Below, one piece after another: positions 6,373 to 62,721 of a stretch of 64,000 nt of DNA. The notes beneath the pieces were generated by a model that saw only the letters and a list, made by a program, of their open reading frames with translations, made no database searches and was not told the origin of the DNA. Location: the IMG/VR virus record IMGVR_UViG_3300020048_000100; one strand, 5' to 3'. Made by a program: the position numbers and the translations under genes. Source of the stretch: an uncultured virus (IMG/VR IMGVR_UViG_3300020048_000100) (taxonomy: Duplodnaviria > Heunggongvirae > Uroviricota > Caudoviricetes). Every line of letters starts with the position of its first letter. Positions within the stretch are counted from its first letter, which is position 1.

Positions 6373-8211
<1,839 letters not shown>

Positions 8212-8236: not shown

Positions 8237-8268
8237 AAAATGTGGGATTTTAATCCCACATTTTTTTT
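8237..8268 (+). terminator. Intrinsic terminator after dnaK
   Basis: tgtgggatt-tt-aatcccaca followed by a T8 run. Confidence 0.8.
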
Positions 8269-8273
8269 AATAC

Positions 8274-8302
8274 TTGACAAATCACTTTTTTTATGGTATA
8301 CT
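8274..8302 (+). promoter_or_regulatory. Repeated sigma70-type early promoter
   Basis: TTGACA-17 nt-TATACT; near-identical copies at 14818, 16445 and 18237. Confidence 0.85.
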
Positions 8303-8343
8303 ATGTCTGTGAAAGAAAGAAAAAATTAGAAGGGGTTGATTAA

Positions 8344-8952
8344 ATGAAAATATTGAAAGATGGTAGAGATTTAAACAATTCTGTATTTATTGTTGAATCA
8401 CATGAAGTAGATTCAAATGGTAATTTTTTAAAGTTATATTTTGAAAGTACAAATAATTCTAAAAGAAAAATTAGATTGGTTGATAATAATAAAGAATATT
8501 TGATTAATGTTGGAGAATATCTTGATAAAGATTATAATTTATATGTTGAACTTAAACTTTTGCTTTGGATTAAAGGATTGTATCATATTTTAGTTAATAA
8601 TATTAAAAATAAAAAATACAATTCAAAATTAGAATTAACTGACGCATCTGTTGAATCAATTAAAGAAGTAGATTTAGTTGAACATATTAAAATAATTACT
8701 AAGTATGGTTATTTTGATGATATTTTAGTAGAACCTTTAAAAATTACTACCCAAGAAATTTTAGATATTATAATTAAAAATGATTATAGTTTTTATGGAT
8801 CAATAATTTCAAAAAATAAATTGTTCATAATGCTAAATGATTATATGGAAATAGATACAGAAGTGTATGAAGCTTGTGATAAAGATTATTTTATTGCAGA
8901 TGTTGGTTTGGAAGATTCGTTAGAATTCCTTTTTTTAATAAGTAATAATTGA
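8344..8952 (+). CDS. Hypothetical protein (TAG-free)
   Basis: 202-aa track ORF after the promoter with RBS; ends TGA. Confidence 0.8.
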   Translation: MKILKDGRDLNNSVFIVESHEVDSNGNFLKLYFESTNNSKRKIRLVDNNKEYLINVGEYLDKDYNLYVELKLLLWIKGLYHILVNNIKNKKYNSKLELTDASVESIKEVDLVEHIKIITKYGYFDDILVEPLKITTQEILDIIIKNDYSFYGSIISKNKLFIMLNDYMEIDTEVYEACDKDYFIADVGLEDSLEFLFLISNN

Positions 8953-8973
8953 TGAAATTGAGTTAAGTTAAAT

Positions 8974-9300
8974 GGGGGCGAAAAGGGTTCGACACGTTTG
9001 ATGAAATTAGTATTTTCATGGGTGTTTTGAATACTACACTAAAAAGTATTCACAAAAATTAAACGACAAAATTAAATCTTTTTTTACCACCAAATTTAAA
9101 AAATCATCAAAGCCTGTATTTCAGCAAGTTTACCAACCTGTTTAGATGTAGGCTTGAGTTACAAGTAATAAAAAAATCTTAATTCATTTTATTCTACATT
9201 AGAGGATTAAGAACTCCCGAATAAAATGTAGATAACCATGTAAAACAAAATACTAATTGAACAAGGGTGGACGTGGGTTCAATTCCCACCGCCTCCACCA
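8974..9300 (+). ncRNA. ssrA: tmRNA
   Basis: 5' GGGGGCGAAAAGGGTTCGAC; 3' GTGGGTTCAATTCCCACCGCCTCCACCA; acceptor stem with G3.U70; internal tag frame 9065..9157. Confidence 0.95.
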
Positions 9301-9331
9301 TTTACTTTAAAATGTAAAGAAGGTGGTTTGT

Positions 9332-9604
9332 TTGCAAGAACAAAGTTCAGTTTTAAATACACTTAATTTACTTGGTAATGAAGATGCAATCGTTCTAATA
9401 ATTACAAAAGAGGGATGTAGTCAATGTACAAAAACAAAGGAAATATTAAGAACACAAAACATTGATTTTATGGAAGTAAACTATGAAACTTTATCTAAAA
9501 CTTAGTTGATGAAACTCTATAATTTTAGAAAATCCAATAACATAGAAAGAATAACATTACCTATACTAATATTTTCAAAAGAATCAGAATATTGGGTTTT
9601 TTGA
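9332..9604 (+). CDS. Glutaredoxin/thioredoxin-like protein
   Basis: ITKEGCSQCTKTK CxxC motif and ITLPILI cis-Pro motif; TAG read-through; ends TGA. Confidence 0.75.
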
Positions 9605-14885: not shown

Positions 14886-15155
14886 ATGGTTGAAAACATA
14901 GATTTATTTGAAAAAATAAATAACATTCTTCAAAAACATGGGTTATCACTTAATAAAGCTAAAAATTGTGCAATTAAAAATCAACATAAAGAAAAATTAT
15001 TTTTAGGTGATGATTTCTATGTTTTATGGAAAAAATCTTTTAATGATGAAAATCGTGGTAGCTCAGAAGAAATATTGTTTAGGAGTAAAACATTAGAACC
15101 AATTGTTAAATGGATGAGTGAATTTATTCCAATGGAGGAATCAAACAATGGATAA
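14886..15155 (+). CDS. Hypothetical protein (TAG-free)
   Basis: Track ORF with RBS aaggtgg; ends TAA. Confidence 0.75.
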   Translation: MVENIDLFEKINNILQKHGLSLNKAKNCAIKNQHKEKLFLGDDFYVLWKKSFNDENRGSSEEILFRSKTLEPIVKWMSEFIPMEESNNG

Positions 15156-16389
15156 TTTAGGAATGTCAATACAAGCTGTAAGAACACCAATATTAGATAC
15201 ATCAAAAAGTAAGTTTACAACAAATGATTTCTTAGATTTTATTAAAAATTCTTTACATGGAATGAAATTTGAACAAGATACAATAGTTTGTATTACAGAA
15301 TCTCTTCTTGCAAGGGCACAAAATAATTATGTAACTATTGATGATATTGCCGAAGATATTAATAAAAAATTTTACAAGCAAATAACGAATAGAAGTATTG
15401 GACTTTTATTTCCTATTTTGAGTAGAAATAGATTTTCAAATATACTAAGAGGTGTTTGTAAAAGCGGAATTAAAAAATTGTATATTCAATTTGATTTTCC
15501 GAAAGACGAAGTAGGAAACTCCATTATAGATGAATATGATGATTACGATGAGGAATGCAAAAATAAAGTATATTCATATGGCGAATTTATTGAAAAATTT
15601 GGGAAGCACACACATAAATTTACTGGTGTTAACTACGTTGATTATTATAAATCTATTATAGAAGAATATAATATTCAATATGAATTTATCTTTTCAAAAA
15701 ACCCAATGACAATATTTGAATATTCATATAATGTTTTAATTTGTAACTTTAGAAATTATGAAAAATTATATAATAAATTAAAGAAAACAATATATAGTGT
15801 ACTAACATTAAAAGATATTTGTGATACAAAAAATGATAAAACAGGCTATAATGAAAAATATGGATTACTTGGGTCTAATAAAGTAGGAGAAGATAAATTA
15901 AAACTATTCCCGAGAGAAGTAGATAAAGAAGGAAATAGATATGTAGAGCTAATAAAAAATATGATTGACTCTAATCTAAACACAAATACTAAAGAACACT
16001 ATAAAATAGATGTTATGATTTATGGTGATGGATCATATAAAGACCCAGATACAGAAATTTGGGAACTATCTGATCCTGTTGTTTGTGTTGATTATACAGA
16101 TGGATTAGAAGGTACTCCAAATGAGTTAAAAATTAAATATATTGCTGATGAAATTACTGCAGAAGATAAAGAAGAAAAAATAAAAAACATGATAAAAGAA
16201 AAAGATAATCTTAAAGGAAAAATGGAATCACAAGGAACAACACCAAGAAGATATGTAAATTTGATAGGAAGTTTATGTGATTTAGTTTCTGGTAGTGGAG
16301 ATAAAGGTACACCAATTATTTTGATTCATAATTATTTCAAGAATTATTCAGATGTTATAGATAAAAAAAGTAAATATTTTATGTTATAA
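15148..16389 (+). CDS. F420-0:gamma-glutamyl ligase-like (CofE-family) protein (TAG-free)
   Basis: ITESLLARAQ, LSRNRF, GLLGSNK, YGDG.YKDP...WEL.DPVV, GTPNE, QGTTPRR, CDLVSGSGDKGTP; RBS ggagg before ATG 15148. Confidence 0.85.
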   Translation: MDNLGMSIQAVRTPILDTSKSKFTTNDFLDFIKNSLHGMKFEQDTIVCITESLLARAQNNYVTIDDIAEDINKKFYKQITNRSIGLLFPILSRNRFSNILRGVCKSGIKKLYIQFDFPKDEVGNSIIDEYDDYDEECKNKVYSYGEFIEKFGKHTHKFTGVNYVDYYKSIIEEYNIQYEFIFSKNPMTIFEYSYNVLICNFRNYEKLYNKLKKTIYSVLTLKDICDTKNDKTGYNEKYGLLGSNKVGEDKLKLFPREVDKEGNRYVELIKNMIDSNLNTNTKEHYKIDVMIYGDGSYKDPDTEIWELSDPVVCVDYTDGLEGTPNELKIKYIADEITAEDKEEKIKNMIKEKDNLKGKMESQGTTPRRYVNLIGSLCDLVSGSGDKGTPIILIHNYFKNYSDVIDKKSKYFML

Positions 16390-16398
16390 AAATAACAC

Positions 16399-16426
16399 AA
16401 ATAGCCCTTAATTGGGCTATTTTTTT
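16399..16426 (+). terminator. Intrinsic terminator
   Basis: aaatagccc-ttaatt-gggctattt followed by a T run. Confidence 0.75.
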
Positions 16427-16444
16427 AACTTATAAAATAACTAC

Positions 16445-16473
16445 TTGACAAATCACTTTTTTTATGGTATACT
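16445..16473 (+). promoter_or_regulatory. Repeated sigma70-type early promoter
   Basis: TTGACA-17 nt-TATACT. Confidence 0.85.
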
Positions 16474-16512
16474 ATGTCTGTGAAAAAAAATAAAAGGGGT
16501 GGGCAAAAAATA

Positions 16513-16800
16513 ATGTGGATAAAAACTGTTGATGAAAATTATGAATACAATAGCATGTATCTGAATATGGATAGTGGAATGTTTTTTGTTTTAGCATTGG
16601 ACAATTCAGTTTTATATTTGTCTTTTGGTTGTAAAGGCGAAAAAACAGAAGCACGAACAATTTATAAAAGCACAAATTCAGAAGAAATATGCAATATTTA
16701 CAAGGCACTTATAAAAAATGTAGATGAGTTACTCAATGATGGAGTGTCTTTTATGGATTTTCAAGGGATGATAGAGTATATCCAAAGTCATAAAGCCTAA
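16513..16800 (+). CDS. Hypothetical protein (TAG-free)
   Basis: Start taken at the ATG after RBS ggggtggg, because the track start lies within the promoter; ends TAA. Confidence 0.7.
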   Translation: MWIKTVDENYEYNSMYLNMDSGMFFVLALDNSVLYLSFGCKGEKTEARTIYKSTNSEEICNIYKALIKNVDELLNDGVSFMDFQGMIEYIQSHKA

Positions 16801-16821
16801 GCGAGATTGGAGGGGATTTTA

Positions 16822-17082
16822 ATGTATAAATGTCCAAATTGTGGAGGAAAGATCGTTGCATACTATTCAATTCCAGAGGTAGCATATATATATGACATTA
16901 CATCAAAACCAGATATAAATGGTTTTTTAGATAGGGAATATCTTGAAGATGAATATATCTTTAAAAGCCTAAAAGAGGTATTTTATGTTTGCATATGCTA
17001 TGACTGTGGCGAAGAGTTTCCAGCAAATTCGTTAGAAGAATTTGGAAAGAAATATGCACACTTATGGGTGGATGTAGATTAA
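16822..17082 (+). CDS. Zinc-ribbon protein (TAG-free)
   Basis: CPNCGG...CYDCG; RBS ggagggg; ends TAA. Confidence 0.75.
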   Translation: MYKCPNCGGKIVAYYSIPEVAYIYDITSKPDINGFLDREYLEDEYIFKSLKEVFYVCICYDCGEEFPANSLEEFGKKYAHLWVDVD

Positions 17083-17111
17083 ATCTTAAAAATAATGAAG
17101 GGGTGATTTAA

Positions 17112-18215
17112 ATGAGAAAAATATGTTATGTGCAAAAAGTAGAGCAATTAATACCTATTGATGGAGCAGATCAAATTGAAATTGCAAAAATAAAAGGTTG
17201 GAATGTAGTAGTTCAAAAAAACAGTTTTAATATTGATGATATGTGTGTATATTTTGAGATTGATTCTTTTATTCCAAAAGAAATCGAATATTTTTCTTTT
17301 TTAAGTAAATACAATCCTATTAAAAAAGATTTATTTGGTGAAGAAGGATATGTCATAAAAACTATTAAACTAAAAGGAGTTATTAGTCAAGGATTGATTA
17401 TTCCTCTTAAAGGGCTTATTGATAATAAACTTTTAGAAGATAGGGAATATAAAATAGAAGAAGATGTATCAAGCCAATTAAAAGTAAAAATATATGAAAG
17501 ACCAGAAGAAAGGGGTTCAAATAATTTTGAAAGCACAAATCAACCATTTCCTACTTTTATCCCAAAAACAGATGTAGAAAGATTACAAAATATTCTTGAA
17601 TATTTTGAGGAATTAACAGAAATGAGTTTTGAAATTACAGAAAAAATAGATGGAACAAGTTGTACTATTTATTATTATAATGATGGTAATACTATTAGTA
17701 AAGGTGTTTGCTCAAGAAATTTAAATGTAACAGATTCAGATAATATCTATACATTTGTTAATACAAAATACAGAATATTGGATAAATTAGAAAAATTAAA
17801 TAGAAATTTAGCTATTCAAGGTGAAATTGTTGGACATGGAATACAAAAGAATCCATATCAATTAAATGAATTACAATTTTATATATTTGATGTTTATGAC
17901 ATTGATAAAAAAAGATATTTATTTCCAAAAGAAAGAAGGGATTTAATAAATACGTATTTTGATACATATTCTATAGGTATACCTGTAAAACATGTTCCTT
18001 GTGTTTCTCTGTACTCTTATGTATTTAAAGATGTATTTAAAACAATGGATGATGCACTAAAATTTGTTAATACAGAATTGAAACATTCTAAAATATCTCA
18101 TTTGTGTAAAACAATTGAAGGTATGGTTTTTAAAAGTAATACTTTAAGCAAATATGGAGATAGAATTACTTTTAAAATTATAAACAATAATTACTTATTA
18201 AATGAGAAGGATTAA
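17112..18215 (+). CDS. RNA ligase, Rnl2/DRB0094 family (TAG-free)
   Basis: N-terminal PIDGADQIE...GWNVVV...YFEIDS...GVISQGL; TEKIDGTS, QGEIVG, FYIFDV, EGMVFK, FKIIN. Confidence 0.9.
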   Translation: MRKICYVQKVEQLIPIDGADQIEIAKIKGWNVVVQKNSFNIDDMCVYFEIDSFIPKEIEYFSFLSKYNPIKKDLFGEEGYVIKTIKLKGVISQGLIIPLKGLIDNKLLEDREYKIEEDVSSQLKVKIYERPEERGSNNFESTNQPFPTFIPKTDVERLQNILEYFEELTEMSFEITEKIDGTSCTIYYYNDGNTISKGVCSRNLNVTDSDNIYTFVNTKYRILDKLEKLNRNLAIQGEIVGHGIQKNPYQLNELQFYIFDVYDIDKKRYLFPKERRDLINTYFDTYSIGIPVKHVPCVSLYSYVFKDVFKTMDDALKFVNTELKHSKISHLCKTIEGMVFKSNTLSKYGDRITFKIINNNYLLNEKD

Positions 18216-18236
18216 AAAAATAAAATAAATACCTAC

Positions 18237-18265
18237 TTGACAAATCACTTTTTTTATGGTATACT
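18237..18265 (+). promoter_or_regulatory. Repeated sigma70-type early promoter
   Basis: TTGACA-17 nt-TATACT. Confidence 0.85.
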
Positions 18266-18309
18266 ATGTATGTGAAAGAAAGAAAAAAACAAAAAAAGGA
18301 GTGATTTGA

Positions 18310-19416
18310 ATGAAAACAAACATCAAAAAAACATTTAAGGGTAAAGAGGTAAAAGACTTTTTATCAACTTTCAATGTTGTAGAAACTAAACAAGAAAATG
18401 GTATGTATACTCTTAAATCTCCAATTGAACAAGTTACATTATCCCCTATTACTGGATTTACCACTGCTGATGGAAGTGTTATTAAATCAAAGCAAGATAA
18501 ACATGTTCTACATACAAATTTTTTAAATGAAGATGAAAGAACTTGTATTATTACGAGCAAATATGAACCAGTTCTCTTATCCAGTCTTATTAAAGAACTT
18601 CAAGATGTTGTTGAAGAGAACAATATGCTTGATCTAATACATACATTAACAATAAAATCAAATGGTCAGATACTGTTTGATTTAGAAAATGAAGAATCAA
18701 AAATGACTCAGAAAAGTGTTAAAGATTTTGTAGTATATAAAAATGTAGAAGAAATTTATAAAGAATTAGTAGTAGATGGGTCAGATAAACTTATTCATGA
18801 AGTAGATTTTGGAAAGTACAGACCATCTTTTATGCTTACAAATTCAGTAGACGCAACAAAGCCAGTTACATTAAAAATGGGTATATTTAGAATTGTATGC
18901 TCAAATGGATTGATTGCATATCCAGAAGGATATAGAGATATTCAGGACTCACTTACAAGAGTAAAACATATGAAAGCTAAAAAAATAATGGAATCGATTA
19001 GAGAAAAATTAGGACTTATTCCTGCTCTTTATAGTAATTTTGACAATTCAATAATCAATGGAGAAATTGAATTTAATGAAATAATTAAGAAAGACTTGCA
19101 TTTCTGGTTGAATGGATATTATAGTGATATTGTTGATCCTATTCAGAATAAAAAAGATTACCTCTCTGAAAGAACAAAAGAAACTGCAAAGAAAGGAAAA
19201 GAATTGGTTAGTGTTGTAATTGATTCATCAAGAAATATTATGGATTTTGAAAACTTGACTTCATATCTATCTAAACCAGAAATAACTTCTAAATGGGCTT
19301 CTGGAAAAAAAGAAAATAGAGATGTAGATATTAAAGGATTGACTGATGTAGTAACAAAGTTTATTCCAGAATTTAGAGCAATTACGTTCAAAAAGTTAAA
19401 TGCAATGACAAAATAA
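18310..19416 (+). CDS. DUF932/DUF945-like protein (TAG-free)
   Basis: LTNSVDATKPVTLKMGIFRIVCSNGLI...KH; ends TAA. Confidence 0.7.
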   Translation: MKTNIKKTFKGKEVKDFLSTFNVVETKQENGMYTLKSPIEQVTLSPITGFTTADGSVIKSKQDKHVLHTNFLNEDERTCIITSKYEPVLLSSLIKELQDVVEENNMLDLIHTLTIKSNGQILFDLENEESKMTQKSVKDFVVYKNVEEIYKELVVDGSDKLIHEVDFGKYRPSFMLTNSVDATKPVTLKMGIFRIVCSNGLIAYPEGYRDIQDSLTRVKHMKAKKIMESIREKLGLIPALYSNFDNSIINGEIEFNEIIKKDLHFWLNGYYSDIVDPIQNKKDYLSERTKETAKKGKELVSVVIDSSRNIMDFENLTSYLSKPEITSKWASGKKENRDVDIKGLTDVVTKFIPEFRAITFKKLNAMTK

Positions 19417-32751: not shown

Positions 32752-35700
32752 TCACACCCTTTTATATGTAAACTCACATTCTTCTAAATTTTCCTAAATC
32801 TTTTTATACTAACTATTTCCTTTCTATAAATATATATCATATTTTTTATTTATTATTTTTTCTATATTTTCTGATATTAAAGGATTCTAATCTATCTAAT
32901 TCAAGTTAATGCCAATTTCCTATAATATTTCTTGTGGGAAAATATTCCCACAAGATTCAGTATTTAATATATATAATTGCTGTTTTGAATTTATAAATAA
33001 TATATAATGGCTGAATGTTGAATATTCAATAACATCATATGCTATTGGAGTAAAACAATTATCTGGTGTTGTATTCCATTCATCTCCAAATATATATAAA
33101 CAATTATTTATATCTAAAAACTAAGTATAATCCATTTGGCATTTAACTGATTTAATATTTGTCTATATTGGTAAATCTATATCAAATATTATCAGGTTAG
33201 ATGATGATACAAAAGGGTTACATTGATGATTTTGATTACAACCAAATATATATAAATTATAATCAGAATCAATAATCTAAGTGTGATTATTTCCAATTGA
33301 AACATCTATAATATTATTCTAAATTTGAGTTGACATATCTAATACATATTCTGACATATTTACACCAAGTGAACATATGTAACAGTCATTTGCCCCAACT
33401 ATATATAAATTATAATCTAAATCTATTATCTACTAAGCATAAAACCATCCAATATTTGATTTTTTCTAATTTATAAAATATGGTTCATCTAAATTTAATT
33501 CAATTATTGTTTCTACTGGTGTATTTTCTGATAAACTCAATATATAATTTTCATTATATCCATACATATATAAGTTATTGTTTTCTGTAATAAAAGAGAT
33601 AATATTTAAATATCCAGATGTTGCATCTACATCAATAACATTTTCCTGAACCTAATCTATAAAATTCATTCTTGGGGTTTCACAATTTCCTGGTATTATG
33701 CATTTTCCAGTACATAGAAACTCGTTATTTCCAATAGCATATAATTTATTTTCATAAGTTAAATAAAATGCACCATACCACTAAGTAATAACTTTTTTTA
33801 TATTTTCCTAAAAATATATTTTTCTAAACAAATTATGATCTTTTAATGTCTACTTACTATTTTCATAAAATAAAGGATTTATAGCACATGCATCTGTTGT
33901 CCAATTATTACCAAGTCCATAAAGTCTATTATCATTTGTAATATAATGAAATCCCCAATATCCAATGCCTTTTTCTGATATATGTTTAATTTTATTATTG
34001 GGTTGTTTTAAATATAGGTTATACTCTTCAAGTGGTCCGTGAAATGTATTTTTATATGCAGCAAAATTGTTATGAAAATTAAGTATTGGATAGCACATTA
34101 ATCCACCACAATTATGACAACCATAAGTTATAAGTTTGTTTTGATTTGTAACAATAACTACATGATCAGAAATATTCTAAATTTTACAATTCGTAAATAC
34201 AATATTCGACTATGCATATGGGTAAGATTGGAGAATACTGCCATGTGTAATTTCTGTTATTGCATGCTAAATACTATCAGTATCTATATAACAATTTAAT
34301 CCCAAACTTTTTACATTTTCCTAAATTTTTGTACCATCTATTTTATATAATTCATTATTCATATTAAGATAATATAATAACCCATCTTTATTTAATGTTA
34401 CGTCTTTTATATTTGACTATAGCTCAGAGTTTGAATTTATTAAATCTTGTAGTATATATAATTTATCATTATTTGTTATAATATATATATTAGTTAAACC
34501 AATTTCAGTATCACCTTGCTAATTTCTATACTGCATAATTTTTTTAATATTAATAGCAATCGGATTAACTAAATCAAATAAAAATATATTATTACTATAC
34601 TGATTTGCCAAATAATTATTATTTGGTAAAGTTACACCATTAGAATCTATAGTTCCAATAATAAATAAATTACTATTATTATCTAATATCAAAGTTATGT
34701 TTGGATAACAAATCTATTGTCTTACATTATTCATTGTGGGTTGTAATTCTTCTGAAGGTAAAACAAGTATATTGCCATTTGTTCCACCAGTTATTGTATC
34801 TATTAAAAAAGGTACAACAGAAAAATAAAAATTTCGACCAGTTATATATAATTTATCATCTAAATCTATATACTAACATGTAAAATAGCCAACATTAGCA
34901 TATTTTACATTTGTAGCATATGGTATTTTGTTTATAAATTTAGTTGTTGAATCATATGAAACTCCTTCTGGGTAATCAAACGTTGGATTATCTGGGAAAA
35001 ACCCAAATAAATATAGTTCATTATCAGAGTTTATATAATATGTTCCCATTCTATTAAATTGTATTCCAGCATCTAATACGTTTGTATTAATTAATCCTTC
35101 TGGGTCTTCATCAATATCTGTATTTTGCCAACTAAATAATAATTCACTTGTTTCAAGAATATTTAAAATAGTATTATTATATGGAACTTTTAATAAAAAT
35201 GGGGATAACTAAATAGTATCAGTAGTGGTTTTAAATGTAAAAGGCTCGCTTTCTATATAGTTACATTTGTTTTTCTATCGTATTTTCCAACTATATGTGG
35301 TATTTGGTTCTAACTAAAAACTTTTTATATTATATGTAAAATTATTAGTTACTAAGTTGTCTTTAATTTTTATAAAATTTTCAGATTCTTTTTGTAATAA
35401 AAATTCATACTAAACCTAATTAATCTAAGACCATTCAAACTATAAGTTTTCTAACTATTGATTAACCTAATTATTCTAAGGAAATATATTATAAAGTGAA
35501 CCTATAATTTCTGGATCATCACACTATGTAATAAAAGACTATTCATTTGATATAATTACAGTTTCATTTGTATAATCTTCCTATATTATAACCTAATAAT
35601 ATCTTGATAGCATATCTAATTTTTCTTCTTCGTTTAATATATAGTTATACTCAGTATTTGTAGTATAAACAAGTAATTTTGCATACTTATCTTCTGGATG

Positions 35701-37128
35701 ATAGAACCAATCATCCCCCCAAGTCTTTGCCATTACCTAAAAAGGTAATTTTAATAAAAATACTTTATAAACTATCAAATTTCCAATATTTGATGAAAGC
35801 TCCCATGCAAAATTAATAATTGTCCTACTAATATCTATTGAATTTGCCTAAGGTGAAATTAAATTTAATACAGTATTATTACTACCTAAGTCTAACACAT
35901 AATTTATTAGAATTATCATTGGGGTATATTCATTATTTTGTGATTCAATAATAAACATAGATAATTCATTATCTGTTTTCCATGCACGAGGCTAAGATTC
36001 TATATTTTCTCCAAAACAATTATTATTTAATAATTTAGTTAATACATTATGTTCAATTGGTATTTTTATATCCTATGCAATACCAATTCCAAGGTTATAG
36101 CTGCTATTACATCCCCAAGTAAATACCTAATTATTGTCTTCTTTAATTGCAAAAATAGAATTTGAATACTAAATAATATCTTTCCAAGAAGTTTCACCAA
36201 GTTGAATTGGTGAATATATATAATCATTAGATATAATACCAAGTTCAGAATTCCAATTATAACCCCAACCAAATAATTTATTATCTGATTCTCTAATTGC
36301 TAAAACAAAACCCGAACCAACCTATATTTTTTTCCAAGAAGTTAAACCAATTTGAATTGGTGTATATATAAATGAATCAATAGTATTCCCTATCCCAAGT
36401 TCCCCATAATAATTACTGCCCCAACCAAATAATAAATTATTTTCATTAGCCAATGCAAATGTTATTTCACTGTAATTTGAATAAATAGTTTTCCACTAAG
36501 TAGTTCCGATTTGTATAGGGGAATATTCTATTGTACTCGAATAACCCAAACCTAAATTATTTTCTTCATTATAACCCCAACCAAATAATATATTATCATC
36601 TAATCTAATAGCAAATGAAAAATTACCATAATGTTCATATGTATATACAGATTTCCAAGATGTATTCCCAATTTGTGATACTTCAATGTAATCGCCAATA
36701 GCTACATCTTGCATACCCAACTATCCACTTGAATTTTCACCGCAACCAAATAATTTATTATCCTCATTTCTAATCTATAATACATAATCTTGTGTCTAAG
36801 TAAAATCTTTCCATTGAATATCTGAAAATTTACGTGGAATAAAATAAAAAGAAGATGATAACATATTTAGATTATAATAATAAGTTCCAGTATACCCCCA
36901 AATATGTAATATATTATTATAATCTAATGCATATATATTATATCCATTGCGTACAATTTTTTTCTAAGTTATATGATATGGGTGTTTTGCAATATTTTTA
37001 AAATATGTAGTTTGTGGGCGATTATCAATCCCTAATAAATAGTTATAATTATACCCACAAAAAAATAAATTAGAACTGGTTGGTGAATATATTAATTTAT
37101 ATTCAATATTTATTAGTATTTCAGCCAT
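32752..37128 (-). CDS. RCC1-repeat plus FN3 structural/receptor-binding protein (about 1458 aa)
   Basis: Repeats LFGWG.N..G.LG.G....SPIQIG..SWK; two FN3 units; a second degenerate RCC1-like block; ends TGA. Confidence 0.8.
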
Positions 37129-55915: not shown

Positions 55916-58900
55916 TCAAAATTCCACCCCAATCCAAGAAAAAAAACTTTCGTAGTTATACTAACTTAATGAATTTTTTTCTTTTAATACATCCCTGAGA
56001 AAAATTGTATTATGCTATTGTGACTGGTATTGACTTTTCTAAAATACACTGCTCATTAAAACTAAATTTGAATAAATATTAGAACCATGCTCAATCAAAT
56101 TACCTTCCAAATCTTTAATTTTTATATCATTATAATTCCTTAATTGTATTTTATCGCCACCAATATTAACAGAAATTATATTATCCTAATATACTTTCTA
56201 TTCGTGAACATTTATAAATGCTATATTACATGATGTATTTGATATAAAATTCAATTTAATTTTTTCAATATCCAATAAATTAGTTATACTAAACAATTCA
56301 ATATAAATATTGTTTAATTCTCTATCCATCTTATAAATTAAATCATATTTACCTATAAAACTGGTTTCTAATATATATTCATATATTATAATATAATTTA
56401 ATTCACCAGCAGAATTAAATTTATGAAATAAATAAAATATTCTAATATTAGAATCTTTATTATATAAATTATATTTACTATATTTATCTATTAATCCACC
56501 ATCAATCAAAAATGAGTCTGAATTTAATGTATCTATATTATTTCTAAAATAATAATTATCTGAATTTCCATATATAAATGATTTTAAAGGATTAATAGTA
56601 ATGTCATTTGTTGAAATATATTTACTTAGTTCTTCTAAATCATTATCAAACTACTTCTAATCAAATACATTATAATAAGGTGAATTGAAATAAATATTTG
56701 AAATATATCTACCATCAACATGCATTAACTAACTGTTATAATCATCTATATTATTAAATCTTTTTCTATTTAGATAAGGTTCTAATTTATAATTAGCAAC
56801 TATGTGTTCTTGACTAATTTCAAATTGTGTAAATAAATTACAATTTATTCTATTGTATAATTCAGTTTTAATCAAATTATTTATATTTATGTTTTCAAAA
56901 TGTGAAAATACAGTATCGATTTTATATAAATTAGTATCCTAAATATCTCTAAATATAACTTTTTTTCTATTGTCATCTAATAATTGTATGGATAAATTAA
57001 AACTATCCTATACTTTTTGTATTTCCTAAGGATATATATATTTATCTAATTTCTAATAATATTCAAGCTACCATTCAGTTAAATAAAATTTATTTGGAGT
57101 ATATAACACCATAATCTGTTTCAAGTTCTATATTTTTAAAATTGGATTATATTTTGATTCAAGTAATACATTAAAATTATTTTTGCTTAATGCCTACATA
57201 TCAAAGTTAAAAATTATAGGTATTAATTGATTTGTAACTTGTGGTAAAGATATGATAAAATTTTCATTATAATATGTATCTAAATATAAATGCAATATTT
57301 TTTGCAAATTTATAAATTTAAAAAGATTTCCTGTAGATTGCTCAATATCATATATTTCTAAATGTGTAACATCCTATAAATTTTCTTTTAGAGTTACTTT
57401 TAAATGATAATCAATTTTATAATTTCTATATATACTATATTTATTAAATGTAGAAATAAGTTCATATTCCTAAAGTTGTATTTGCTTATATTTTGTAATA
57501 ATTGTACACGCTTTAGATGAATATAGAATACTAATATTTTTTATTATATAATTTTTAGAAACAATATCAATGAATCTTAGATAATATATTTTATTTAATA
57601 TATTGCATATATTTGGAAATTCTTTATTGAAAACTAAATTGAATATTGTAAAATTATTAAATGTTTTATTTTGAATCGTACACTATTTTTCCAATATATT
57701 TATGTTTTTATTTTTTATAGATTTAAAGCTAAAATTAAACTCCAATATTTTTCTATTTGCTAAAATAAAATTAATATTTATAAAATCAAAGTTATTTGTA
57801 TTTCTAATATTTTTAAATTGTACAAAATATGTATTAGATTTATTTATAATTCCATAATATAATATATTAAATATATCAATTACTGTAATATTTTTAATAA
57901 TTTTAGAACTAAAATTAAACTGTTTTTGTATATTTTTTATTAGTGTATAAGCAATACTACTTGATGCTGTTGATCCCTATGTTCCACCATTTATTTTAAC
58001 TGTTCCGTTCCCTGTTTTGTTAAGGTTCAACTAATATGAAATTGGAGTAAATTGAGCAGTATAAGTTGTCTACTACTATGGCATATTAAAAGTATAAGTC
58101 TAATTGCTTGATACTAATGTTCCACCATTGTACCAACCATTAAACAAATATCCAGAATTTGGTTCTGCATATATTGTAGTAGATGTTTCAACTTCAATCT
58201 AATAAGTTATTAAATAAGTGTACCAAGAATTATTATTTACTTTAACTCTTCCAGTATTTGGAATTCCAATACCAAGTGTTAAATCTCTTTTTTTTATAAA
58301 TTTTGCAGTATATGTTATCTATGACTAAGGCATATTAAATGTATAAGCCTAATCGTTTGATACTAACGTTTCACCATCGTACCAACCAATAAAAACATTT
58401 AATATACTAACAGGAGTTGGATTTGCTGTTATTGTAATTGAAGTATCAGAAACAAAACCACTGGATGCAGTCTAATCCTAAGTACCACCATTTATTTGAA
58501 CTGTTCCAACTCCAGTACCAGCAGTATTTAAATTTAGTTGATATATTTGTGCTTCAATTCCAAATGAACTTTGTGAACCCTAAGATACATAGTTCCAAGT
58601 TAACTAATCATTAACTAATTTTGGTATATAAGGTTCATAATATCCAGCAATACCCAACTGGTTAAAATTATTGTTTCCCCAAGCATATAACTAATTATTA
58701 TTTTCTAATATTGCTAAAGTGTGATACCCATTTTCCCCAAATCCAACACTCACTTGTTTCCAAATACTATTACCTATTAAAGTTGGGGAAGTTTTATTAA
58801 CTTTTGTTCCATCACCCAATTGACCAATACCGTTAAGTCCCCATGTATATAAATTTCCATTTATATCAAGTGCCTAACACATATACTTCTACATATTGCA

Positions 58901-59626
58901 TGATATCTATTTCCAATCAGATGTTCCAATTTGTGTTGGAGTATATCTATTATTAGTATCGCCAAGACCTAAAACACCATATTCATTATATCCCCAAGAA
59001 TATAATTTATTATTACTTGCTATTCCAAAAGAAGCATAATACCCCTAAGAAATATATTTCCAAGTTGAAACTCCTATTTTTGTCTATATTGTTACTGAAG
59101 TGGAAGTTGATCCTATACCAGCTTGCCCATAACAATTATTACCCCACTAATACAAATAATCGTTTTCGTCTATAGCTAATACAGCACTATCAAACGCACA
59201 TGATACAGTTTTCCAATTTGAAGAACCAATTTGAAATGGAGTATATGTTGAACCTATTGTTGGATGTGTATATATTATATAATTATTATACCCCCATGCA
59301 AATAATTTATTATATTCATCTATAGCAATACAACTTGGATAATTATAAGCACTTACACACTATACAACTTGCTTCCAATTAGATGTTCCAATTTGTGTTG
59401 GAGTATATCTATCAGTAGTATCTCCAAGACCTAAAACACCATATTCATTATATCCCCAAGAATATAATTTATTATTATTTTTTATTGCAAATCCAGAAAA
59501 TATCTAAATATTTACCTATTTTATATCAGTAAGACCAGATGCTGTTGGAATAGTTACAGTCTATGTATTTCCATTGCCCAACTACCCATATAAATTTCTA
59601 CCCCAAGAATAAAGATTATTCTACAT
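55916..59626 (-). CDS. RCC1-repeat plus InlB-B-repeat (Flg_new-like) protein (about 1236 aa)
   Basis: About seven LYSWGYN.YG.LG.G...TPTQIG...WK repeats; F.GWY.G...VS....YTFNMP.....Y.A.F units; ends TGA. Confidence 0.8.
58911..59477. repeat. Near-identical about 105-bp direct repeat pair (58911..59015 and 59373..59477)
   Basis: 4 mismatches; offset 462 nt. Confidence 0.85.
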
Positions 59627-62436: not shown

Positions 62437-62721
62437 ATGTTTAAAAATGAAACAATCGCTAAAACATATTTGTATCTACATAATAGATATGGTGATACTA
62501 AATTATATCAATTTTTTATTGGTATATATTTTAAGATAATACATAAAATAGCATTTATTAAATCTCTTAATAAAAAAAGAGGTAATTATAAATATGATTT
62601 TGATAAAAAAGAATGGATTAAAAAAGAAATTTTTTTTAATTTAAATGATTTCAAAAATACAAATAATACAGATTTTGATGAAAAAGTAAATAAAACAAAA
62701 CGTTGTTTACCAATCAAATAA
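62437..62721 (+). CDS. Hypothetical protein (TAG-free)
   Basis: RBS gaggtg; GNYKYDFDKKEWIK; ends TAA. Confidence 0.75.
   Translation: MFKNETIAKTYLYLHNRYGDTKLYQFFIGIYFKIIHKIAFIKSLNKKRGNYKYDFDKKEWIKKEIFFNLNDFKNTNNTDFDEKVNKTKRCLPIK

Follow-up and report, generated by a model that had tools for sequence, protein, structure and literature searches.

Here, we analyze a gene for a transfer-messenger RNA (tmRNA, or SsrA) on DNA of an uncultured virus of the Caudoviricetes (IMG/VR record IMGVR_UViG_3300020048_000100); the whole stretch analyzed, 64,000 nucleotides, is referred to as the window. The window has a GC content of 23.3% and is phage DNA that uses TAG as a sense codon. Under the bacterial code (translation table 11), 37 open reading frames (ORFs) reach 80 aa or more; when TAG is translated, the number rises to 73, closely packed, among them ORFs of 1458, 1236, and 1038 aa that carry 51, 45, and 25 TAGs, respectively. 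Pfam matches include a tail-sheath C-terminal domain, a RecA-like protein, Hsp70, PhoH, an RNA ligase, a metallophosphatase, and a glutaredoxin. The tmRNA gene is of interest because the short ORF that it carries has in-frame TAG codons at its end, and the product of this ORF depends on how these codons are read. An original prediction, made from the sequence alone, had claimed that the encoded degradation tag is complete only in the recoded state.

ARAGORN identified a single tmRNA in the window, at 8974-9300 on the plus strand, with gene positions 92-172 as the tag-coding part. The same 327 nt aligned to Rfam model RF00023 over its full length (positions 1-374 of 374) with 97.6 bits (E 7.1e-37), compared with a gathering score of 47 bits for this model. 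The RNA is predicted to fold with a z-score of -3.9, and 0 of 100 shuffled sequences folded as well. The acceptor stem has seven pairs, one of which (G8976:U9294) corresponds to G3:U70, the identity pair for alanine, and ACCA follows at 9297-9300; the T arm (GGGUUCAAUUCCC) has an asterisk as its posterior probability in the RF00023 alignment. The region of pseudoknots 2 to 4 aligned poorly to RF00023. In place of helix 5, we found a hairpin, the 3' strand of which is TAG ATG TAG GCT TGA, i.e., the last 15 bases of the tag.

The resume codon had been placed at 9065 in the original prediction, and this position was confirmed by ARAGORN and by the RF00023 alignment, in which the consensus resume codon GCa is aligned onto GAC at 9065-9067. 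In the frame-setting sequence immediately upstream, U9060 and A9061 equal U85 and A86 of the UAGUC sequence of Escherichia coli, and the gap between the pseudoknot 1 (PK1) hairpin and the resume codon is 12 nt. In the available part of PMC2481249, A86 is described as the main determinant of the frame, and the spacing between PK1 and the resume codon is given as well. The same tmRNA gene, with three substitutions over the 327 nt (at 9106, 9124, and 9184), is present in contig C9 of G001, which is the nearest available genome, and in the metagenome loci L072, L074, and L077. The window represents one haplotype and these four copies represent the other. The two differences that lie inside the tag ORF (9106 and 9124) are both synonymous third positions in the frame of GAC 9065. 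In contigs from four sequencing runs, only the known change at 9106 was seen within the tmRNA among the matches listed.

The tag frame reads DKIKSFFTTKFKKSSKPVFQQVYQPV-TAG-ATG-TAG-GCT-TGA, as originally described. With TAG read as alanine, the tag ends in QPVAMAA followed by a stop; under table 11, it ends in YQPV, and the tag reported by ARAGORN is accordingly DKIKSFFTTKFKKSSKPVFQQVYQPV followed by a stop. The alternative C-terminal peptides are, therefore, FQQVYQPVAMAA with TAG as alanine and FQQVYQPV under table 11, and only the former has the hydrophobic Ala-Ala degron ahead of a stop. The other two frames of the tag region have no tag-like ending. The encoded tag of 30 residues, of which six are lysine, is also long and basic as proposed. 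The pattern of its ending ([TAG/GCN][hydrophobic][TAG/GCN][TAG/GCN][TAA/TGA]) occurs once on the two strands of the window, at 9143, while in simulations it occurred twice in 60 simulated 64-kb windows (0.033 per window); the AMAA pattern is thus more than a chance occurrence. TAG accounts for two of the three alanine codons of the tag and for 601 of all 905 alanine codons of the window (66%). TAG being the commonest alanine codon of the phage, the TAGs in the tag are explained by ordinary codon usage.

The meaning of TAG was derived from proteins. In the 55 ORFs analyzed for codon usage, TAG makes up 601 of 19,927 codons (3.0%) and is present in 45 ORFs and absent from 10; GCN codons number 304 (1.5%) and CAA plus CAG 562 (2.8%), and the ORFs stop with TAA (39) or TGA (16). 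Two of the TAG-containing genes were aligned to many homologs, the Hsp70 gene (6373-8211), which carries 15 TAGs, and the RecA-like gene, which carries 18. For Hsp70, the comparison covered 105 homologs with 62-67% identity; the 15 closest proteins (P0001-P0015) were excluded because at least P0001, P0009, and P0013 are translations of this phage with glutamine at TAG. Among the 13 TAG columns that could be aligned, alanine is the majority residue in seven (positions 33, 152, 154, 239, 349, 352, and 356), including columns in NEPT-A-A-A-LAYG (104/105 and 101/105) and VGA-A-IQ (101/105), and it is the second-commonest residue at position 107. Two solved DnaK structures aligned to the phage Hsp70 gave the same picture of alanine at TAG. 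For the RecA-like protein (101 homologs, with the 19 closest, P0121-P0139, set aside), alanine is near-invariant in six of the 15 alignable TAG columns (80 to 100 of 101 homologs), glutamine tops one, and arginine tops one. Summed over the 28 TAG columns, the log-odds were +23.5 bits for alanine, -32.5 for serine, and -77 for glutamine; the expectation from code 15 (TAG as glutamine) fails, with a glutamine majority in only 2 of the 28 columns. In closer relatives that were translated with Q at TAG, 6-10% of the residues are "Q" and 0-4% are A, and the two replace each other within the same columns. Judged by these conservation patterns, TAG is shown to stand for alanine rather than glutamine in this phage. 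The tag agrees with these independent alignments, as the original prediction had it; and because a tmRNA tag needs an Ala-Ala ending to work, the tag is a witness for TAG as alanine that is separate from the protein alignments.

Table 1. Features of the tmRNA gene and of the DNA upstream of it
Feature	Position	Strand	Basis
Terminator-like element downstream of Hsp70 (hairpin plus T run)	8237..8264	+	Sequence; same element in L072
Promoter-like site of the sigma-70 type (TTGACA-17-TATACT, TG upstream, 11/12 matches)	8274..8302	+	Consensus match; kept in L072
TAG-free ORF, 202 aa, ending 22 nt before the tmRNA	8344..8952	+	ORF list; codon count
Phage-encoded tmRNA (SsrA), 327 nt	8974..9300	+	ARAGORN; Rfam RF00023; fold; copies in other DNA
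Acceptor stem, 5' strand, GGGGGCG	8974..8980	+	Minimum free energy (MFE) and centroid pair list; Rfam alignment
Frame-setting sequence UAAAC	9060..9064	+	Sequence; Rfam alignment; PMC2481249 rule
Resume codon GAC (Asp)	9065..9067	+	ARAGORN; RF00023 alignment; haplotype changes synonymous in this frame
Tag reading frame, 30 codons and TGA with TAG as alanine (DKIKSFFTTKFKKSSKPVFQQVYQPVAMAA); 26 codons under table 11	9065..9157	+	
Hairpin in place of helix 5	9107..9157	+	MFE and centroid fold; local fold -16.2 kcal/mol
First TAG in the tag frame; read as a stop under table 11 and as alanine in the phage code	9143..9145	+	
Second in-frame TAG of the tag	9149..9151	+	
GCT, third alanine codon of the tag ending	9152..9154	+	
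TGA, end of the tag when TAG is alanine	9155..9157	+	
Acceptor stem, 3' strand, CGCCUCC, then ACCA	9290..9300	+	MFE and centroid pair list; Rfam alignment

Altogether, we consider it fairly probable that the gene encodes a working phage tmRNA, the tag of which is read in the code of the phage and ends in AMAA. In this model, the alanyl-tRNA synthetase (AlaRS) of the host would charge the RNA with alanine, as suggested by the conservation of its tRNA-like domain and by G3:U70; the charged RNA would enter stalled ribosomes with an SmpB protein of the host type; and translation would resume at GAC 9065. In a recoded cell, both UAGs of the tag would be read as alanine, like any UAG, and release factor 2 (RF2) would end the tag at the UGA at 9155. 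The rescued protein would then gain A-DKIKSFFTTKFKKSSKPVFQQVYQPVAMAA, the C-terminal Ala-Ala of which is predicted to serve as a signal for proteolysis. In cells that still terminate at UAG, tagging by this RNA would add 27 residues that end in YQPV and lack the degron. This consequence of the code dependence is real, and ribosome rescue would here be tied to the state of the genetic code in the cell. Because TAG is the commonest alanine codon of the phage, we suggest that the code dependence of the tag is a by-product, for which no dedicated switch has to be assumed.

The nearest genome, G001, is a 1.3-Mb bin, and most of its contigs have a GC content of ~25% and are well readable under table 11. 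The recoding of the window is also seen in contig C9 and in some 24 smaller contigs, and the recoded DNA, window included, amounts to ~160 kb. Two tmRNAs are present in this bin: the phage one on C9, and a bacterial one on C12 with the tag ADKTELAYAA, a TAA stop, and a score of 174 bits. Based on the co-binning and the similar GC content only, the co-binned bacterium is a plausible host. The sole SmpB gene of G001 is on the bacterial contig C3, with none on the recoded contigs and none beside the tmRNA, and both release-factor genes are on bacterial contigs; the bacterium has an RF1-type gene (two PCRF matches).

Several observations weigh against the model, or against parts of it. First, the predicted decoder of UAG, a tRNA(CUA), was not found in the phage DNA examined, which is an incomplete genome and does not prove that the phage lacks one. 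ARAGORN detected no tRNA(CUA) for the phage in the window, also when introns were allowed and thresholds were lowered, where only noise inside genes was returned. No tRNA(CUA) was present in any recoded G001 contig (~100 kb further) or in the first 20 kb of the larger bacterial contigs, nor among the 26 Rfam tRNAs of the whole bin, and a custom anticodon-arm scan combined with ARAGORN with introns detected none in the window and 35 further loci. The custom scan gave 15 anticodon-arm matches, all in AT-rich coding sequence and none of them tRNA-like. Second, neither SmpB nor RF2 was found on the phage DNA examined. Third, every copy of the tmRNA falls in the two haplotypes, and the argument from synonymous changes is a single comparison and not four; among 21 metagenome loci, we found no diverged relative of the tmRNA that could show an exchange of TAG and GCN codons in the tag. 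Fourth, one of the two columns with a glutamine majority, residue 59 of Hsp70 (6547-6549), is glutamine in 105/105 homologs (AKR-Q-A) and leucine in P0015, the nearest of the diverged relatives; constraint on this site may be relaxed, or the TAG may hint that decoding is ambiguous. Fifth, GCN codons are no more frequent in the TAG-free ORFs (1.76% alanine versus 1.50% GCN plus 3.36% TAG elsewhere), and composition, therefore, does not separate alanine from other readings; early proteins would also be oddly poor in alanine. Finally, contigs from RNA libraries cover the tmRNA, yet such libraries can contain DNA.

A different explanation, which we regard as doubtful, is that the code dependence is adaptive. 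Here, an early tmRNA, transcribed from a promoter of the host type along with the TAG-free gene, would rescue ribosomes and add the tag that ends in YQPV, which would not direct proteins to ClpXP or Lon; the AMAA degron would appear once the alanine suppressor is active, and selection would act on the timing of the proteolysis of rescued products. In an equally doubtful form, the tmRNA would be a read-out of the code state, adding a harmless basic tag before the switch and later, through AMAA, timing the bulk proteolysis of rescued, mostly host, products. If true, this read-out would be the first natural change of genetic code that toggles a signal for protein degradation. The surroundings of the tmRNA fit such a scheme in part. 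The order of terminator, promoter-like site, TAG-free ORF, and tmRNA is kept in both haplotypes, and the tmRNA may be produced before the code switch. The adjoining ORF is significantly free of TAG: at the window rate, 6.8 TAGs are expected and none is seen (P(0) = 0.0011), and its counterpart in L072 lacks TAG as well. In this, it resembles nine other ORFs; in all 10 (2051 codons), 0 TAGs are seen where 69 are expected. This set fits the early/late model for recoded phages as presented in the available part of the preprint bioRxiv 10.1101/2021.08.26.457843. A contig from an RNA library (run X17) spans 8335-9298, from just past the promoter-like site to the 3' end of the tmRNA, and gives a weak hint in the same direction. 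However, the share of TAG among the alanine codons of the tag equals that of the window, and nothing beyond drift is needed to explain it; the promoter is a consensus match only, of a class of sites that is no commoner in this region than in shuffled sequences; and the tmRNA of a related prophage, G402, has a code-independent tag ending (GCT GCC TAA). The original proposal of a code-gated rescue system, thus, holds in that the tag ending depends on the code, but a designed gate is doubtful, as codon usage suffices.

The same proposal had named host proteins that are read through their UAG stops as substrates, and this we find unlikely. Over 629 kb of the co-binned bacterium, TAG is the stop codon of 81 of the 455 ORFs with 150 aa or more, and ribosomes that read through it would meet a TAA or TGA after 6 codons (median). 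The substrates of tmRNA are ribosomes that have reached the end of a truncated mRNA, and short extensions are not among them. Because the extensions are short, host read-through would rarely give the non-stop ribosomes on which tmRNA acts, which also argues against an adaptive timing of proteolysis.

Still less probable, in our view, is that the tag always ends at the first UAG, either because release beats suppression or because the tmRNA acts before recoding only. AMAA would then be coincidental and no protein would be marked for proteolysis. Table 11 does give a complete ORF of 26 codons, which ARAGORN accepts; the RF1-type gene of the co-binned bacterium is in line with this explanation, as is the lack of a suppressor tRNA in the phage DNA examined. 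On the other hand, a pattern expected 0.033 times per window sits exactly at the end of the tag, and two other tmRNA tags, those of the G001 bacterium (ADKTELAYAA) and of G402 (ANEYIPLAA), end in AA. Moreover, late ORFs hold up to 51 in-frame TAGs, for which UAG release must be nearly abolished, and the UAGs of the tmRNA would, therefore, be read too. Very improbable is a decaying, host-captured tmRNA gene that is out of use: its 97.6 bits compare with 174 for the co-binned bacterium and 204 for G402, and the region of pseudoknots 2 to 4 aligns poorly, but the acceptor stem, G3:U70, the T arm, the PK1 hairpin, and the frame-setting bases are intact, the fold has a z-score of -3.9, the haplotypes differ by only three substitutions with both of those in the ORF synonymous, and the tag has a meaningful ending when read in the code of the phage.

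A distant relative of this phage is G402, a prophage of ~107 kb in IMG/VR with 28-30% GC and flanks of 41-44% GC. Fourteen of its proteins have counterparts in this phage (22-41% identity), among them PhoH, the RecA-like protein, and several with roles in structure or replication, and it shows the same bimodal use of TAG and very few GCN codons; six TAG-rich G402 proteins had no Pfam match. At 118,483-119,172 of G402 (L060 1171-1860), a tRNA-Ala(UGC), a tRNA(CUA) with G3:U70 and A73, and a tmRNA follow each other in a row, and all three RNAs would be substrates of AlaRS. The tmRNA scores 204 bits and has the tag ANEYIPLAA, the end of which is spelled GCT GCC TAA and contains no TAG. A comparison with tags of related phage tmRNAs had been put forward in the original prediction. 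The G402 tag ends in Ala-Ala; being without TAG, it indicates that a TAG-bearing tag is not group-wide. A pattern search of IMG/VR for alanine-type CUA tRNAs found G402 only under strict settings and G402 and one further phage, G403, under looser ones; in G403 (L182 1001-1156), the tRNA(CUA) adjoins a tRNA-Ala(UGC) in a tRNA array, and no tmRNA scored above the cut-off. The G402 cluster hints that recoding to alanine and phage tmRNAs travel together.

Other relatives are few. A metagenome scan gave 32 loci, and of the 21 scanned with ARAGORN, three (L072, L074, and L077) hold the near-identical tmRNA. DNA with this stretch was found in runs from 11 studies, covering bioreactor, wastewater, digester, activated sludge, and food fermentation samples; two of these matches are possibly the window's own source. 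By blastn, a phage collection contained no match to 8900-9400, and IMG/VR contained no relative of the tail sheath. Among 401 genomes of the order of G001, the tail sheath was found in G001 only, with weak matches in four others, and a scan of genome contigs returned 10 weak loci only, with 28-50% identity over short stretches. With Hsp70 as the query, we obtained eight loci of 42-52% identity; six were scanned with Rfam, and the one RNA match was an unrelated permuted tmRNA. The latter (RF04321, 98.5 bits) lies at L033 2828-3039 on an unrelated viral contig, ~7 kb from an Hsp70 gene.

The phage tmRNA shares with bacterial SsrA (RF00023) the tRNA-like domain with G3:U70, the CCA end, the PK1 hairpin, and bases of the U85/A86 type, and its decoded short ORF likewise ends in hydrophobic-Ala-Ala. 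Unlike bacterial SsrA, it is phage-borne and short (327 nt), has a long basic tag, and resumes at GAC (Asp) rather than GCN; in addition, UAG provides two of the last four sense codons, and the ORF is complete only in a non-standard code. The long tmRNA tags of Mollicutes have ~27 residues, some of them start with Asp-Lys, and they end in AFA and are read in a constant code; they are similar in length to the phage tag but differ in the ending, and no kinship is indicated. In green-algal mitochondria, UAG means alanine, but these are organelle genomes, unlike a virus that switches the code inside a standard-code cell. Huge phages also encode tmRNAs among translation-related genes (Al-Shayeb et al. 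2020, PMC7162821). As described in the available part of that article, they were called with ARAGORN under the bacterial code, and tags with reassigned stops are not mentioned in that part; by contrast, the phage tag here needs its own code.

Recoded phages in which TAG means glutamine (code 15) or TGA means tryptophan are described in the available parts of Borges et al. (10.1101/2021.08.26.457843) and Peters et al. (PMC9523058), and in the former these two are the only changes reported for phages that differ from the code of their host. In line with these descriptions, the phage analyzed here has in-frame TAG in most genes, the structural ones above all, a TAG-free subset, and a putative host with the standard code. 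It differs from the TAG-to-glutamine phages described there in having alanine at TAG and in that neither a phage RF2 nor a suppressor tRNA was found in the DNA examined. The word alanine is absent from the available text of the same preprint and of a 2026 jumbo-phage survey. In the full-text literature, supplements aside, we found no phage with TAG as alanine and no tmRNA tag with reassigned stops; nor did we find an earlier rescue-and-tagging RNA whose product depends on the genetic code of the cell. Among the public protein records P0001-P0014 and P0121-P0124, P0001, P0009, and P0013 have glutamine written at every TAG of the phage; if TAG means alanine, ~3% of the residues in late proteins are wrong in such records.

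The TAG-free ORF upstream of the tmRNA had no match in Pfam, PHROGs, or Atlas and no relative in IMG/VR. Its only relatives are four close ones, all seen in this phage only; the counterpart in L072 (8558-9391) is ~58 aa longer and has a tandem repeat and a hydrophobic tail. An AlphaFold2 model of the 202-aa protein had a mean pLDDT (predicted local distance difference test) of 44.7 and was unusable. Other TAG-free ORFs lie in blocks at 14886-19416, 1996-2938, and 62437-62721, which encode, among others, an F420-ligase-like protein, an RNA ligase with an OB fold, and a DUF932 protein. These blocks are probably a standard-code (early) gene set.

The phage Hsp70 is nearest (62-67% identity) to cellular DnaK proteins, of which the named ones are mostly from Thermotogota, and a DnaJ-like sequence is present on a recoded G001 contig (L129 3968-5062). 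A tRNA-Ile(UAU) at 1654-1730 is on the same strand as the tmRNA and RecA genes in the window, L072, L076, and L077, and on the opposite strand in G001 C9 (39627-39703) and L073 (3761-3837); a segment seems to be inverted between strains. RCC1/RLD beta-propeller repeats (PF25390, 190 bits) are present in two giant proteins of the structural block, encoded at 32752-37128 and 55916-59626 on the minus strand, and are unusual for phage tail or fiber regions. In the dinucleotide composition of the window, CpG is strongly depleted (0.30 observed/expected) and GpC is mildly low (0.85).

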